Assembly (NCBI GenBank): GCA_964016885.1
Contig: CAXHJY010000597.1
Location: 1 to 30,046, forward strand
Direction: 5' to 3'
Length of the DNA: 30,046 bases
From: Eledone cirrhosa
Lineage: Eukaryota
Shown here: positions 3,515-29,625 of the stretch, piece after piece
Numbering within the stretch: position 1 is the first letter of the stretch
Layout of the letters: every line of letters starts with the position of its first letter
Notes under the pieces: model-generated
Seen by the model: only the letters and a program-made list of their open reading frames with translations
Database searches by the model: none
Told to the model about the DNA's origin: nothing
Program-made: the position numbers and the translations under genes

Positions 3515-3824
3515 AACGGTGATGTATTAGTTTGCGAGGCTTATGATATGAAATCGTGTGTCGAAACAAATATTGTTATACTTGGGGAGGGTCATATTTG
3601 TGTAATATTGCCAGAATTAATAACAGAACAGAGCAGATGCGCAACGAAAGAACTTTGATAAACTGTATTTTTGACCGTGGTCAGTCAATGGCAACATTGA
3701 GGACCGAATAAATTAAATTAACCGATATAAAAGACACAGAAGCGAAAAGCAAAAACCAACCTAACAGTGAGTGTGTTCTGTTATTAATTCTGGCAATATT
3801 ACACAAATATGACCCTCCCCAAGT
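3515..3824. mobile_element. Short TA-embedded interspersed element with a 51-bp terminal inverted duplication
   Basis: 310-bp unique island between TA tracts; 3580-3630 is the exact reverse complement of 3774-3824 (143-bp spacer). Family not identified. Confidence 0.6.
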
Positions 3825-3855
3825 GTATATATAAATATATATATATATATGCATA

Positions 3856-4992: not shown

Positions 4993-5505
4993 TTGACCAC
5001 CGAGTCCATTGTCATAATCAAACCGCCACCCTCCTTTGTGTGATAGCTATGGCGAAAGAGGTTGTATGGTGGACGAGGTTAAAAGGGCTGAGGTCAGACA
5101 CCTTTCTCTCCGGCCAACAACTGATTCTCTTTTTCAAATACCACTTTGGAAGAAGAATCAGGATGGAGAGAGAGGTGCTGTACCCCAGCAAGTTTTATAA
5201 AAGGTGGGTGAAAGTGGCGAGAATGGCCCGAGTGGTTGGGCCTTCTCTCTATATCAGCCTGTAGGTTGAGGAAAAAGAAGAGAGGAAAGGGGTACTCACT
5301 CTTCGTACTCCTGGAGATGAGGATTGCACATTTTTTTCGTGGGTATGTGCTACCCATATGAAATGTCTCTCCCTATTGGGGAAAATCGATTAACTTTTAA
5401 TTTGCATTTGTGATAGTATTTTACACGTTTTTATTGTATGTAAACGCCCCCCTTTGTAATTGTCCCCTTCTTTTGTGCCCCTGTGGCTAATAAAGAAACA
5501 TATCT
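4993..5505 (+). mobile_element. 3' fragment of an L1/Tx1-like LINE (ORF2 C-terminus plus 3' UTR), copy 1
   Basis: ORF 5040-5264 IAMAKEVVWWTRLKG...FFKYH..RRIRMEREVL...FYKRW fits the AK..VW..R...R...E...F..RW pattern of L1/Tx1 ORF2 C-termini. The UTR ends tgtggctAATAAAgaaa plus a tatc/tc tail, and (ctat)n lies upstream. Confidence 0.65.
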
Positions 5506-5515
5506 CTCTATCTCT

Positions 5516-5865
5516 CATTTTGGATGGAGAGGGAGGTGCTGTTCCCCAGCAAATTTTATAAAAGGTGGGTGAATGTGGCAAAGATGGCCCGAGTGGTTGG
5601 GCCTTCTCTCTATATAAGCCTGTAGGTTGAGGAAAAAGAGGAAGAGAGGAAGGGTGTACTCACTCTTGGTGCTCCTGGAGATGAGGGTTGTACATTGTTT
5701 CGGGGTGTGTACAACCCCTGTGTAACGTCTCCCCCCTATTGGGGATTTCAATTGTTATTTCTTATTTTATTAATAGTTTTATTTTCATATACCTGTATGT
5801 AAACTCCCCATTTGTATTTGTCCCCTTCTTTTGTGCCCTTGTGGCTAATAAAGAAATTTATCTAT
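5516..5865 (+). mobile_element. 3' fragment of the same L1/Tx1-like LINE, copy 2 (tandem to copy 1)
   Basis: ggatggagagggaggtgctg...cctgtag (to 5624) nearly matches 5161-5264; homologous UTR ends AATAAAgaaatttatctatctatc. Confidence 0.7.
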
Positions 5866-6001
5866 CTATCTACCTATCTGGCTGTTTGTCCGTTTGTCTA
5901 TCTATCTTTCTATCTATCTATTTGTCTGTCTGTGTGTCTATCACTCCCACTCTATATCTCTCTATATATAATATATATATACTCTGCCATCATATATATA
6001 G

Positions 6002-9652: not shown

Positions 9653-10212
9653 CACGCACACACATATATATATATATACTCACACACACATATATATATA
9701 CACACACACATATTTATATACATATACACACACATGTATATATATATATATATACACATATATAAATATATACATATATATACACACACACATATATAAA
9801 TAAATATATATATATATGCACACATATATAAATATATATATACATATATATATGCACACACACATATAAATATATATATATATATATGAACACACATAAA
9901 TATATATATATATATGAACACACATAAATATATATATATGCACACACACACACATATATAAATATATATATATACACACATATATATATACACACACATA
10001 TGTAAATATATATATGCACACAGTTATATAAATATATATACATATATATATATATATATACATATATAAATATATATATATACACACACATATATAAATA
10101 AATATATATATATATATACACATATATATATATATATATATAAATATATATACACACACATATAAATATATATATACACACATATATATATATATATAAA
10201 TATATATATATA
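9508..10212. repeat. (TA)n/(CA)n compound microsatellite
   Basis: Direct reading. Confidence 0.93.
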
Positions 10213-10300
10213 CATTCGTTTGCAATTATCAAATATCCTCTTTTATACGCCATGTCAGTAGAAGCCATTCATTCTTACTCTTGTGTTGGCATGTAAACAC

Positions 10301-10346
10301 AACTGCAGACACTGATTCTGGATGATTACTCTTCGTCAGTGCAGTT
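10301..10346 (-). ncRNA. Minimal type I hammerhead, degenerate (GAAU instead of GAAA)
   Basis: Minus strand: aactgca CUGACGA agagtaatcatcca GAAU cagtg UC tgcagtt. Confidence 0.65.
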
Positions 10347-10604
10347 TACTGCTTACCTGCCAACTGTCAGAGCTAGTGATGTATATATACATATTTTTAT
10401 ATATCACTAATAATTAAAAAATAAAAATTCTCGCTCTACATGACTTAGTACAATATATGTAATCTGAGTTTTTCGAATATTAATAATGATATTCGATTCG
10501 TTTACAATTATGCAAACAGCCTCTTATTTATTTATATATTTATTTTTAAAGCAAAGTCAGTAGAATGAGTCCCTCATTCTTGCTCTTGTGTTGGCATGCA
10601 AACA

Positions 10605-10652
10605 AAACTGCAGACACTGTTTCTGAGTCATTACCCTTCACCAGTGCAGTTT
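10605..10652 (-). ncRNA. Minimal type I hammerhead, degenerate (CUGGUGA core)
   Basis: Minus strand: aaactgca CUGGUGA a gggt aatg actc a GAAA cagtg UC tgcagttt; stem II pairing is kept despite substitutions. Confidence 0.65.
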
Positions 10653-10884
10653 ACTGCTTACCGACCAACTGTCAGAGCTAGTGAAACATATATGATTTTT
10701 TCTAAGATATACAGTGATTGATCGGCTTAATTTGCATATTAGCAGACTGGCTGATCAGTCAGATCTGCATATTTCCAGGCCCACTGAAGGCCAGTCAGTT
10801 TCAGTTATACAAAGAGCCACTTTTATAAGCCATGTTAGTAGAAGGAGCCCTTCATTCTTACTCTTGTGTTGGTATGTAAACAGA

Positions 10885-10928
10885 ACTGCAGACATTGTTT
10901 CTGGATGATTACCCTTCATCAGTGCAGT
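10885..10928 (-). ncRNA. Minimal type I hammerhead ribozyme, intact core
   Basis: Minus strand: actgca CUGAUGA a gggt aatc atcc a GAAA caatg UC tgcagt; 6-bp stem I; GUC triplet; predicted cleavage between 10891 and 10890. Confidence 0.85.
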
Positions 10929-11152
10929 ATACTGCTTACCTGCCAACTGTCAGAGCTGGTGATGTATATATACATATTTCTATATATGAATATATATATA
11001 TTCATACTTATATATATATATATATATTTATATTTCAACACACGATTTCATAACAAAAACATTGCAAATTAAATACATTGCCATGACATGTATGTATACT
11101 TCTATATATATATATACAATTATACACACTTATATATATATATATATTTCTT

Positions 11153-12944: not shown

Positions 12945-13144
12945 AAGGTAAGTTATTCCGGGTTGAATCGGAGGTAACCACAGTAAGTAAGGTACTCAAT
13001 ATATAGCAGAGTATAGTATAAAAGTTTTAATATAGATGAGATTCTACAGGACTTGAACTGTTTCATTCTTGAGAAATCATCAGGATTCCTGATGATTTCT
13101 CAAGAATGAAACAGTTCTAGTCCTGTAGAATCTCATCTATATTA
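12945..13144 (-). mobile_element. Family C: PLE-like 3' end (hammerhead, attaaa, ~80-nt tail) with fold-back inverted duplication
   Basis: 58-bp arms 13028-13085 / 13087-13144 with 1 mismatch and a 1-nt centre; TA tracts on both sides. Confidence 0.7.
13084..13132 (+). ncRNA. Type I hammerhead ribozyme, canonical core (mirror copy on the minus strand at 13040-13088)
   Basis: gattc CUGAUGA t ttct ca agaa t GAAA cag ttctagtc ctg UA gaatc: 5-bp stem I, short stem II, 3-bp stem III, GUA triplet. Confidence 0.85.
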
Positions 13145-13379: not shown

Positions 13380-13793
13380 AAACAACCCATTTGTGCCCCC
13401 CCCCCCCCATTGGAGATTTTCGATTGTTATAATTGTTTGTTTCAATATTTTTACACGACTGTATGTAAAATCCCCGGCATGTGTCTTTGTATTGTCCCCT
13501 TATCTTGTGCGCCCTTGTGGCAAATAAAGAAATATATCTATCTATATGTTGAGGAAGACAAACGGGAACACCTACAGAAGGTGCTCCTGGTGTTGAGGAT
13601 TGTTCTATCCACGGGGTGTAAAACAACCCCGCAGTAACGTTCCCCCTATAAGGGATTTCGATTATTTTATTTTTATTTTATATATAGTTTATTGTCATCC
13701 ATTTTTGTTAAATATTTTTATGTAAAACCTCCGCCGTCACGTCTTGTAATGTCCCATTTTTGTACGCCCCTGTGGCAAATAAAGAAATATATC
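13380..13793 (+). mobile_element. Two tandem 3'-UTR fragments of the L1/Tx1-like LINE (13380-13545 and 13548-13793)
   Basis: Homology to 5264-5505 and 5624-5865: gttgaggaa..., gtgctcctgg, ggggtgt...acaacccc, ccccct/cat..ggg/ggagattt, tgtatgtaaa, ttgtcccc, tgtggcaAATAAAgaaatatatct. Confidence 0.7.
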
Positions 13794-14044
13794 TTTGGAA
13801 ATTTCAAAAATCTACATTTTTTTTTTTTATAGAAGACTTTAAATGTTTACAGTCGAAACAAACCAGCAGGAGATTCAGTGATGGACCCCGAGCAAGAGGG
13901 TCTCGCTTGGGGATCTAGCCGGATCATCTGTAGGCAGTTGTTTCTGACAGGACCCGGGGCGGGGGGTGGGGGGTGTAATGTTTGAGGACATTGCCTTCAC
14001 AACCCTCTCAAGAATATGTGGGTGAAGAGGAAGATGGTGAAAAT

Positions 14045-23100: not shown

Positions 23101-25901
23101 CATAACTTTGAATAACTTTGAAATGTTTTGGCCAGTATTGGCCCAGGCCATGTCTAACTTAATAGCACCACCTGGCGAAGTCTTTCAATTCAGGATTTGG
23201 GCACCATGGCCCATTCGAGAAGAGAATTACTGTTTGCGGAGACATATCCGGGTGTGGGTGGTTTGTCCGGGATTACTTGGAGGAATTTGTCCAAAGACTT
23301 CTTGAATTTTGTGTGGTCAGTTTCTGTTTTGACGTGTCCTGGTGTGATGTTGAAGAGAGCAGGGCCGATTGAGGTGAAATAATTGTGCCGTATTGTTGTT
23401 ATGAGTTGCGATTTAGATTTTTGAATGGGACGGATAGCACGGGGCCCAAGCCTTGGGTGTATCTTGAAGGCGATGCCAACATCATTTGGGCAGTGATGAT
23501 GGAACATTTTCCACATCATGCAGATAATATAACGCTCACGGCGACGTTGGAGTGAGTAAAGTTTCAGGTTTTCCAATCGACCCCAGTAGTCAAGGTCTGA
23601 CATGCCATCTATCTTTTTCGTGATTGCCCTTTGAGGAGCTTCAAGTTTCATGATACTTTGTTTCGTGTGGGGAGACCACAGTGGACAACAGTATTCAAGG
23701 TCTGGTCGGGCGAAAGTAGAGAAGAAAAAGGATAATGGTGCGGGAATCTCTCGACTGGAAGGTTCTGAGGATCCAGGAACACATTCTGCGGGCCATGTCA
23801 ACTTTGCTGCTTATATGCGTGGTCCAGCTTATGTGCTGTCCACGGTTACTCCCAAGTCTCTGATGTTGTTAGATGCCACGAGAGTTTCCCAGGAGGGAAG
23901 GGAGTACGGGTGTTTCAGAGCATCCTCTTTTCCAAAGTGGATCAGTTCGAATTTGTCTTCGTTCAGTAACATGTTGTTCTTTTCTGCCCATTGGGTAACA
24001 GCCAGTAGGTCTGACTGAAGGCTTATCCGGTCATCCACGCCATTGATGACCTTTTGGAGCTTGGAATCATCAGCGAAAATTTTAATGTTGCTGTGTTTGA
24101 TGATGTCAGTGATGTCATTAATATAGATGATGAAGAGAAGTGGGCCCAACACAGTGCCTTGTGGGACTCCACTACTGACTTTGGCTGGGCTTGATTTGAC
24201 TCCCTCAACTACAACATGTTGGGTTCTGTTTGACAGGAAGCTCTTGATCCACTGCAGCAGCTTTCCAGTGACACCAATATTGGACAGCTTTCTCAGTAGA
24301 ATGTTATGATCAACCCTGTCAAAGGCCTTGCTGAAATCAAGGTAGATAACATCAGTGTTGGAACCCTCTCCCAAGGCTCTCAAAATGTCATCAAAGTGAT
24401 GCAGTAGTTGCGTCAGGCAATCCCTTCCATTACGGAATCCATGCTGGTTGGAGTTCAGCATATTGTTACTCTCAAGGAAGTGGGTCATTCGCGATCTCAC
24501 CACTCGCTCAAATACCTTAATGATATGAGAGGTGAGTGAGATTGGACGGTAATTCACGGCAAGGGATTTGTTTCCCTTTTTGAAAACTGGGACAACAGAC
24601 TGGGATAGAAGGTTTTCTGGCACATATCCAGCATCCAGTGAGTTCCGCCACAGATTGGCAAGAGGAGAAGCAAGTTGGTGTTGACACGCCTTCAAGACAC
24701 AAGCAGGGAACCTATCGGGACCTACTGCTGAATTATGCTTGATTTCCTTTATTGCCGCCAAGACATCAGGGGCGCCAAACGTTATGTCCGATAAGGTGTA
24801 ATGGGGAGTAACATCGCCGATACAGCCCAGATCGGCCATATCAGGATTGCTGAAAACAGAGCAGTATTGTTTCTGCAGTATCTCACCCATGGTTTTAGCA
24901 TTGTCTTGAAGAGTGCCATTTTCATCAATTAGAGGGCCAACAGTAGAGCCAGTGATTTTGTGTTTTTTTGCAAATGAAAAGAACACTTTGGGATTGAGTT
25001 TGATCTTCTCAATGGCCCAGGCCTCTTCAGCTCTTCTCTGATTGTTGATGAGGGACATTATGTTGTTTTGGAGGTTATGTTTTTTAATCTCTAGTGATGA
25101 AATGGCAGTCAAGTTGATGTGTTGCTGCTGACAGTATTTCAGCTTGTTGATTTTTTTGTTCGTTCTCTTAATTTTTCTGATGAGCGTTTTTCTATTTCTA
25201 GGGATTCTGCTCTTAGATTTGTTTATAGTTCTTAATGGGGTGTGTTTAGCACATATGTTTGTAACAGTGTCCACAAATGTCTGCCAGGACTTTTTGATGT
25301 TAGTGGGTGTATGAGTGTGCGTGAAGGACCAGTCGACATGTGCAAGATCATGACTGATCGCTTCCCAGTTTGCATTGTGGAAATCCATAGCGTCAAACGG
25401 ATGGACAGGAGAGATGACATTGGGTTTGTATATTGGACGGTGGAATCTCAGATCACAGAGAACCATGTCATGATCAGAGAGTAGAGTTTTCTCCACTGCA
25501 ATATTGTGGATATTGTCAGTGTGATTGCTGAAAATTAAGTCTAGGACGTTTTTGTGGCACCTCGTTGGTTCGAGCACTAGTTGGGATAGGAAGAAATCAT
25601 CCATGAAGTCAAGAAGCGATTCCACAGCTTCCCTGTCAGAGGTTGAGGCAGAAGAACCTGGTGGCAGGGTGTTTGTGGACCAGTCAACTCCGGGGAGGTT
25701 GAAGTCCCCCATCATTAAGATGTTGTCAGGGTGACGCTCTTGGATGAAACACTTTATGCTGTTGAGGCATTCCTTGAAGCATGGTACAGGCGTTTGGGGT
25801 GGCCTATAGAGCCCAACTACTAATAGGTTGTTGGTTTGACTGAATACAGTGACTGCTTCACAGTATCCATTAGTGAATATGTTCATAGCCTCTGTTGAGA
25901 A
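23101..25901 (-). mobile_element. 5'-truncated CR1-group LINE retrotransposon inserted in (TA)n
   Basis: EN-RT ORF; short 3' UTR with a ggccaatactggcc hairpin and terminal repeat (ttcaaagtta)x2; TA tracts abut both ends. Confidence 0.92.
23190..25900 (-). pseudogene. LINE ORF2: C-terminal part of the APE endonuclease, reverse transcriptase and C-terminal domain; two compensating frameshifts near 23834 and 23725
   Basis: Motifs [29 protein letters not shown] (APE); [57 protein letters not shown] (RT); RPDLEYCCPLWSP, LYSLQRRRER (CR1-type C-terminus). The ORF-track extension to 26378 is only TA repeat. Confidence 0.92.
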
Positions 25902-28092
<2,191 letters not shown>

Positions 28093-28094
<2 letters not shown>

Positions 28095-28765
28095 AACAAT
28101 TAAGTTAAAAGTGTACATCCACATATGTATACTGAAATACTAGTATGCATATAAATACACACACGTATACATATGTACATGTACCGAGTTTTTCACCGGA
28201 CACTTTACTGTGAGTGTCCACCTAGTCTGTATGTAACCAAACAGACAAACCGGGTTTTAGAGTCATACGGGTTTTCAAGGAAACACCTTTCCTCTATTCA
28301 CCAGAGAGCCAGACAGGAATATTGGACTAGTTTCGATGTTATTACATCTCATCAGCAATATATACCCATCTTCCGGCTTCTCTAGAGAATCGTAAAAGCA
28401 CATATCATTATATGCTTTTTCTATGAAAATTAGTAGTGGGCAGACTAATTTGCATAGAACGTGAGTTGTACGCACCGGTTCAGCGGAAACGATAAAAACA
28501 AATAACGAAACGAAATCAAATTTCGTTTCGTTTGTAACTCACTTTTGTATGACTGACGCTTAAACAATTAAGTTAAAAGTGTACATCCACATATGTATAC
28601 TGAAATACTAGTATGCATATAAATACACACACGTATACATATGTACATGTACCGAGTTTTTCACTGGACACTTTACTGTGAGTGTCCAGCTAGTCTGTAT
28701 GTAACCAAACAGACAAACCGGGTTTTAGAGTCATACGGGTTTTCAAGGAAACACCTTTCCTCTAT
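28093..28765 (-). mobile_element. Family D: 468-bp unit in partial tandem (205-bp direct repeats 28093-28297 / 28561-28765) carrying a minimal hammerhead
   Basis: The direct repeats differ at 2 positions; hammerhead at 28319-28361; internal hairpins; TA-rich flanks. Confidence 0.8.
28319..28361 (-). ncRNA. Minimal type I hammerhead ribozyme, fully canonical
   Basis: Minus strand: atattg CUGAUGA gatgt aata acatc GAAA ctag UC caatat; 6-bp stem I, 5-bp stem II, palindromic CUAG in place of stem III; predicted cleavage between 28325 and 28324. Confidence 0.92.
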
Positions 28766-29625
28766 ACATACATACATATATATTAATAAAATAATGAATA
28801 AACAAAGAACCAGTTCCTTATATTAAAAAAATTCATCATTTTACGATCGTTTCTAGGATATATATGTGTTAGAGTTGATATGCATATTCTATAGATCTAT
28901 GTACAATATTTATACAAACTATCAGAGGGAATATACAACCTACACATATATATGCTGTCTTCAGAAATAATGATATTTGTTTATTGAAAAAAACCAAAGA
29001 TTCAATACAATAGGTCTGTTTGGGAACAGGTTTTGAATTGACCAATAGTGAGATAGTGAGGGTCAGGATAGTAATATAGTAGTAGAAGAACCTTAAATTA
29101 TAGGTAGAGGAAGGTAGAGTGCAGTTTTGGATGGAAAACAATATTATGAATGAAGGATTATATTAGGGAAGAAATAGGTCTTATGCTGACCTCAGAAATA
29201 ATTTTATTTTTTTCATTGAATAAAACCAACAAAGATCTAATATATTCTGTCTGTTTGGTAAGAGGTTTAGAATTAACCAATAGAAAGTTAATAATTGGCC
29301 AAATGGTAAAATAGGTCAGGTGGTCAGTAAAAGGTATACAAGCAGTTGCTGTTATAAAATAGTAATGCCAATACAAATATCTAAGGTGACTAAAGTTTTA
29401 AGATAAGAATTTTAGTAAAAAAATACATCTATGAAAAGAATATAAATTAATTTAATAGATGGGTATATTTATATTGATAAAATTATACTAATACATATAG
29501 ATATGATAAATAAGAGTTAGATGCAGTTGAAAAGTGGTGTTAAAGATGAGGGGAAATTAAAAGAATATAAAAAAAATATGTATATATATACTTATACATA
29601 TATATACATACATATATGTACACAT

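Follow-up and report, generated by a model that had tools for sequence, protein, structure and literature searches.

Head-to-tail units carrying hammerhead ribozymes are already known in many animal phyla, molluscs included. In the metazoan non-LTR retrozymes, these units measure 220-240 bp in coral, 350-390 bp in mussel and 330/350 bp in axolotl (Cervera and de la Pena 2020, PMC7229834). Their ribozymes have been assigned to the canonical animal type I form (PMC7229834). That form has a helix I of 6 bp, a helix II of 4 bp and a helix III of 1-2 bp with a palindromic loop, whereas 'minimal' designates the variants of Penelope elements, in which helix II has 7-8 bp, helix I has 4-5 bp and an additional unpaired base precedes helix II (PMC4209133). 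Copying of a circular or multimeric template by a Penelope protein has been proposed as the route followed by animal retrozymes (PMC7229834; PMC7761336; Li et al. 2026, bioRxiv 10.64898/2026.07.22.740005). Partial tandems, 5' inversions and microsatellite targets have been described for Penelope-like elements (PMC8557442), and a Penelope protein was found in vitro to nick AT-rich DNA and to start inside its own RNA (PMC11167929). In Octopus vulgaris, 31 Penelope-like families have been recently active; the word ribozyme is absent from the main text of this 2026 Octopus repeat annotation (PMC13282606). A literature search on octopus hammerheads and cephalopod retrozymes, incomplete in its coverage, returned no paper describing a cephalopod retrozyme.

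Here, we describe a short element, at 28093-28765 of the stretch analysed, that is probably a non-LTR retrozyme, i.e. a non-autonomous Penelope-like element. It was probably placed in a TA microsatellite when target-primed reverse transcription ran for more than one lap of a circular or multimeric RNA.

Organisation of the element and its junctions

The window, that is, the whole stretch of DNA analysed, comprises 30,046 nt, of which approximately 30% is (TA)n-like. The borders of the element were set by comparing the sequence with itself at a lag of 468, and its RNA sense, the minus strand, by the strand of the hammerhead. Its 673 bp amount to 1.44 head-to-tail copies (673/468) of a non-coding 468-bp unit with 37% GC; the 468-bp length and the 1.44 copies are as the original prediction had proposed. 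That prediction also held for the 205-bp terminal direct repeats with two differences, since 28093-28297 and 28561-28765, compared at lag 468, are 99% identical and mismatched at two positions only (28197 C / 28665 T and 28221 C / 28689 G), and the identity breaks off abruptly at both borders. In RNA sense, the element begins with the upstream, 5' partial copy (205 bp, 28561-28765, minus strand), continues through a single-copy part (263 bp, 28298-28560, minus strand) that holds the hammerhead and, according to the folds, several hairpins, and ends with the downstream, 3' copy (205 bp, 28093-28297, minus strand). The latter directly abuts a (TA)n/(TACA)n tract at 27615-28092, which is the likely target; a CATA/TA run of 18 bp (28766-28783) adjoining the RNA-sense 5' end probably belongs to the opposite margin of this microsatellite. 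Further into the right flank, a diverged AT-rich duplication (28946-29060 and 29190-29290) was recognised by eye.

The longest ATG-started frame of the unique part encodes 35 aa, an 87-aa frame in the same part has no Pfam match, and no Pol III box A/B pattern occurs there. Self-comparison retrieved no second copy of the 468-bp unit within the window. Three public sequencing runs, all from one sample, contain 0.44-0.51 of the element's sampled words; they may represent the source sample and are therefore not independent support, and they are uninformative on copy number and ends. Another 17 runs with small shares of these words (0.06-0.16) were set aside, and none of the listed runs with the element's words is an RNA run.

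The hallmarks of LTR retrotransposons include TG..CA ends and a target duplication that is short and of fixed length. A TRIM or another non-autonomous LTR element, with 205-bp terminal repeats and the hammerhead in its internal part, would agree with the 99% identity of the repeats and with the dimensions of the locus, as repeats of 100-250 bp and a total below 1 kb fit the 205 bp in 673 bp found here. Bivalve TRIMs (biv-TRIM) come close in size and terminal direct repeats (202-218 bp), and a clear PBS is missing from them as well (PMC6934838). However, the ends of our element read TAAAC..CTAT on the plus strand or ATAG..TTTA on the minus strand; no PBS of the TGG type, judged by a TGG start, lies behind the upstream repeat in either orientation; no PPT is present, the 15 nt before the downstream repeat being 47% and 40% purine in the two orientations; and an exact target duplication is absent, although one could hide in the TA-type flanks. 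No tRNA gene was found in the window. The combination of TG..CA, PBS and PPT, which the original prediction had named as the mark of a TRIM, is thus lacking in both orientations of this single copy, and together with the absent target duplication this indicates that the element is not a canonical TRIM. We consider an LTR-type origin very unlikely. Plant LTR retrozymes also share the size and the terminal direct repeats of this locus, but theirs are type III ribozymes located inside both LTRs (PMC7761336).

The repeats could alternatively postdate the insertion, a monomer having been inserted first and the 205-bp duplication arising at the DNA level by unequal exchange or slippage by the microsatellite, or as an assembly artefact. 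The long (TA)n tract that adjoins the element is error-prone for both assembly and replication. Yet repeats left by a DNA-level event inside a monomer would lie next to each other, whereas those seen here occupy the two ends of the insert, separated by 263 bp; moreover, the two copies differ at two sites, and another element in the window, built from a different unit, is likewise arranged head to tail. Such a later duplication or artefact is, in our estimation, very unlikely.

A canonical type I hammerhead on the minus strand

When both strands of the whole window were scanned with a descriptor of type I hammerheads, a single match was obtained, on the minus strand, with C3 at 28355, C17 at 28325 and CUAG as loop III. 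Among dinucleotide shuffles of the unit, the descriptor matched 1 out of 5,000 in its loose form and 0 out of 5,000 in its strict form. The Rfam model HH9 aligns with 28302-28374 on the same strand (32.9 bits, E=2.9e-6), below its gathering score of 52, and the alignment retains the loop-1 UA and the loop-2 adenines; no Rfam family attains its gathering score in the whole window. Rfam matches to miRNAs and snoRNAs at the locus were rejected, as they fall far under the cut-offs and are due to TA-rich hairpins. The hammerhead-core pattern also had one match each in metagenome and viral contigs; neither the remaining parts of the ribozyme nor the unit accompany these matches, which were read as chance.

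The descriptor scan, the HH9 alignment and a constrained fold place the ribozyme at 28311-28371 (minus strand). In the constrained fold, helix I consists of a distal part of 7 bp, an internal loop UAU/U and a proximal part of 6 bp. The core boxes are CUGAUGA (28355-28349) and GAAA (28334-28331), with a helix II of 4-5 bp between them, while helix III is a single A-U pair under the palindromic CUAG tetraloop, followed by UC. The predicted cut lies between 28325 and 28324. With a helix I of 6 bp plus the distal 7 bp, a helix II of 4-5 bp and no extra base, the features of the Penelope-type minimal hammerhead are absent, and the geometry matches the canonical definition given in PMC4209133. The original prediction of a 'textbook minimal hammerhead' is therefore upheld as regards the hammerhead, by the descriptor, the shuffles and HH9, and corrected as regards 'minimal'. 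It had also located a ribozyme with a palindromic CUAG in the unique part, naming no strand; it is present there, on the minus strand.

In an energy model that leaves out tertiary contacts and magnesium, the active monomer has -8.0 kcal/mol versus -16.1 for a misfolded monomer in which the CUG of the core pairs with loop III (pair probability 0.95). For two molecules, the same model gives -32.8 for a double hammerhead versus -32.2 for two misfolded monomers. The best cofold of all (-35.7), however, is a dimer without the active structure, which lies 2.9 kcal/mol under the double hammerhead. The hammerhead is predicted from these energies to cut only as a pair. A helix III of one pair with a palindromic tetraloop is shared with newt satellite 2 and the axolotl HHR_Amex1, and the newt/axolotl hammerhead of this kind reaches 6% cleavage in 1 h alone and cleaves efficiently as a dimer (PMC7229834). 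Our energy values agree in direction with this poor cleavage of the monomer and good cleavage of the dimer. Unlike these amphibian cases, the genome here is invertebrate-like, and most retrozyme hammerheads there have been reported to possess a stable helix III and to cut as monomers (PMC7761336).

Because there is only one hammerhead at the locus, a 468-nt monomer could not be released by two cuts from this locus alone. Two consecutive units with complete hammerheads were not found here, and two ribozymes are what defines an 'active' retrozyme in bioRxiv 10.64898/2026.07.22.740005. On this definition, the locus is a family copy rather than an active circle-producing locus, and it is likely a dead end for making circles.

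The unit is predicted to be highly self-paired, mainly on the ribozyme strand

Folded as a circle, the unit has a z-score of -9.3 on the minus (ribozyme) strand versus -5.9 on the plus strand (60 shuffles each). On the ribozyme strand, the predicted minimum free energy of the circle is -153.4 kcal/mol, with 68% of the bases paired. The unique part alone yields z-scores of -6.9 (minus) and -4.8 (plus), with 8 versus 3 G-U pairs, and 8 strand folds of four control stretches, taken partly from the flank and partly from the LINE close by, range from -2.2 to +0.9. Folding of the circular monomer, which had been proposed as a check on the original prediction, thus shows a strong excess over shuffles that is best on the ribozyme strand.

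According to the pair probabilities, a long stem is predicted at 28296-28390 (minus strand), with 28390:28296 as its outer pair and the hammerhead at its tip. In the ribozyme stem from +15 to +29, 13 out of 14 predicted pairs have a probability of 0.88-1.0 and the remaining one of 0.5. Since the predicted stem extends from the internal part into the repeat, the repeat boundary is not a structural one. Four further stems had been pointed out in advance, and all are perfect reverse complements where this was stated. Among them, the perfect 13-bp hairpin at 28504-28532, which is independent of strand, was corroborated by its absence from shuffles, as 0 out of 1,000 shuffles of the unique part contained a perfect hairpin of at least 13 bp. 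Another of the four needs qualifying, as the palindrome of 12 nt at 28378-28389 lacks a loop; its predicted partner on the RNA strand is mostly 28297-28307, within the long ribozyme stem. A predicted hairpin at 28196-28221 (minus strand; -11.1 kcal/mol) has both repeat differences at its base, and its upstream twin at 28664-28689 is stronger (-15.7); the differences may stem from two templates or from later mutation.

Other repeats in the window

Several other repeats share the window with the element. At 1360-2604, within (TA)n, a 591-bp unit is present in 1.94 copies that are 99.1% identical, with an inverted 5' piece, a tandem-plus-inversion layout like that described for Penelope-like elements (PMC8557442). 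It contains two hammerhead-like motifs on the plus strand, in which the core is of the U3-A8 type, helix II is long and helix III is a palindrome of 10 nt; cuts are predicted after 1934 and 2524. The U3-A8 core has been reported for Schistosoma Penelope elements (PMC4209133). Having two ribozyme-like motifs, this element is a better candidate for making circles than the 468-bp one. A likeness between the 3' ends of the two elements was attributed to chance, as 760 out of 2,000 shuffles score equally.

Three diverged units (85-89%) of approximately 280-300 bp occupy 10218-10987 and carry hammerhead-like cores on the minus strand at 10922, 10644 and 10339, with both core boxes intact only in the first (10922); the array resembles a retrozyme trimer of some age. 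Rfam recognises neither the motifs at 1350-2620 nor those at 10210-10990, which were identified as hammerhead-like by descriptor or inspection only. Both arms of an inverted repeat (97%) at 13028-13144 bear a short hammerhead-like core, and the whole resembles a Penelope end surviving as a fold-back remnant. Two head-to-tail units of ~360 bp (82%) are found at 5161-5871, with diverged relatives 8 kb off at 13460-13800; they have a GC-rich hairpin, end near AATAAA and contain no hammerhead detectable by descriptor. Two short inserts in (TA)n, at 27413-27614 and 3516-3826, harbour inverted repeats (27490-27614, 92%, and 3580-3630 / 3774-3824, 100%, respectively).

A LINE at 23105-25900 (minus strand), inserted in (TA)n, encodes an APE endonuclease and a reverse transcriptase in two long frames. 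Its best relatives among the matches listed are 44-55% identical. Two of the 120 relatives listed carry an organism name, Argonauta hians in both cases, and with 55% and 52% identity they are top among the matches listed. This LINE was rejected as a partner of the 468-bp unit, with which it shares no sequence. Because it also sits in (TA)n, and approximately 30% of the window is of this kind, targeting of (TA)n is not specific. The segment 12530-12610 bears what we take to be a resemblance to an Octopus SINE. An octopod is the probable host, with a decapod as the less likely alternative.

Retrozyme versus truncated Penelope-like element

At the sequence level, the element at 28093-28765 has the features of metazoan non-LTR retrozymes: a canonical type I hammerhead, a non-coding head-to-tail unit with GC below 45%, a strong predicted self-pairing of the monomer and the absence of LTR, PBS and PPT. 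It differs from them in having only 1.44 units and one ribozyme and in its slightly longer unit. At 468 bp, the unit is just above the range of 150-450 bp given in PMC7229834 and within that of 51-972 bp given in bioRxiv 10.64898/2026.07.22.740005.

Both ends of the element can be placed on the RNA. The RNA-sense start, 28765, corresponds to +28 after the cut site, i.e. 27 nt past the cleavage position of the unit, and is at most 2 nt from the base of the ribozyme stem, which is paired through +29. The RNA-sense end, 28093, lies 232 nt after the cleavage site, with one whole hammerhead crossed in between. A start near the cut site or at the stem base is only suggestive, as either coincidence would occur by chance in roughly one case out of ten by a rough estimate.

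These ends also bear on another origin, in which an internally deleted or heavily truncated Penelope-like element would have left the 205-bp repeats as remnants of its pLTRs and the 263-bp middle as the remainder of its body. The template would be a linear read-through RNA and no circle would be involved, the hammerhead only trimming the 5' end or needing help from a protein. A 5' end 27 nt past the cut position is what a ribozyme-cut linear template would be expected to give, and 5'-truncated partial tandems are the normal layout of Penelope insertions (PMC8557442). In addition, cleavage is dispensable and protein-assisted in an anole Penelope element (PMC11167929), and Xenopus retrozymes are similar to pLTRs (bioRxiv 10.64898/2026.07.22.740005). 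On the other side, the ribozyme here is of the canonical form, while the pLTRs of animal Penelope elements have minimal variants for the most part (PMC4209133), no remnant of an ORF was found, and the entire unit folds far better than shuffles. We regard this origin as unlikely; it departs from the retrozyme reading mainly in the shape of the template and in ancestry.

The likeness to Penelope pLTRs is nevertheless broad and encompasses the 5'-truncated partial tandem, the AT-rich or microsatellite target, the type I ribozyme and the palindromic helix III (PMC4209133, PMC8557442, PMC11167929). Unlike pLTRs, the canonical ribozyme lies outside the repeated part, there is no 5' inversion and no RT/GIY-YIG ORF is found between the repeats, so the element is not an autonomous Penelope-like element. 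No autonomous Penelope partner was found within the window either. The idea that the LTR-like look arises when a structured RNA unit is copied in partial tandem was sustained by the lack of LTR hallmarks and the stronger fold on the ribozyme strand, except that the parallel drawn with pLTRs does not extend to the position of the ribozyme.

For a non-LTR retrozyme, the following course may be envisaged. A multimeric copy elsewhere would be transcribed on the ribozyme strand. Pairing of two hammerheads through the palindrome ACUAGU is predicted to lead to cleavage and to release 468-nt monomers, which might then be closed by a host ligase; a hammerhead on its own is predicted to misfold and remain uncut. 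A Penelope-type RT/GIY-YIG protein would then nick AT-rich DNA, and copying would begin 232 nt past the cut site. As the layout shows, copying passed one intact hammerhead and ran 205 nt into a second unit; it would have ended 27 nt before the next cut site, where the long ribozyme stem has its base. Two published results count against this model: hammerhead cleavage was dispensable for insertion of the anole Penelope element in vitro (PMC11167929), and 8 out of 9 predicted Xenopus retrozyme dimers remained uncleaved in vitro (bioRxiv 10.64898/2026.07.22.740005).

A more specific version, which we put forward as a speculative and rather doubtful one, is that the locus is the footprint of slightly over one lap around a 468-nt RNA circle with a self-locking hammerhead. 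Pairing of the core CUG with its own palindromic loop would leave monomer circles uncut, only nascent multimers would be cleaved, and the reverse transcriptase would stall at the stem base on the second lap, making this an invertebrate, probably cephalopod, retrozyme with a dimer-only ribozyme of the amphibian type.

Implications

This copy is useful because both of its ends map on the RNA: copying would have begun 232 nt past the cut site, crossed one intact ribozyme and halted at the foot of the ribozyme stem. The same end geometry over more copies would tell circular from linear templates, the circular template being a hypothesis in the literature. If true, the self-locked circle would be a worked answer to how the circles of animal retrozymes escape self-cutting. 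More broadly, the element suggests that some short repeats of TA-rich genomes annotated as 'LTR-like' or left unclassified are ribozyme-bearing parasites of Penelope elements.
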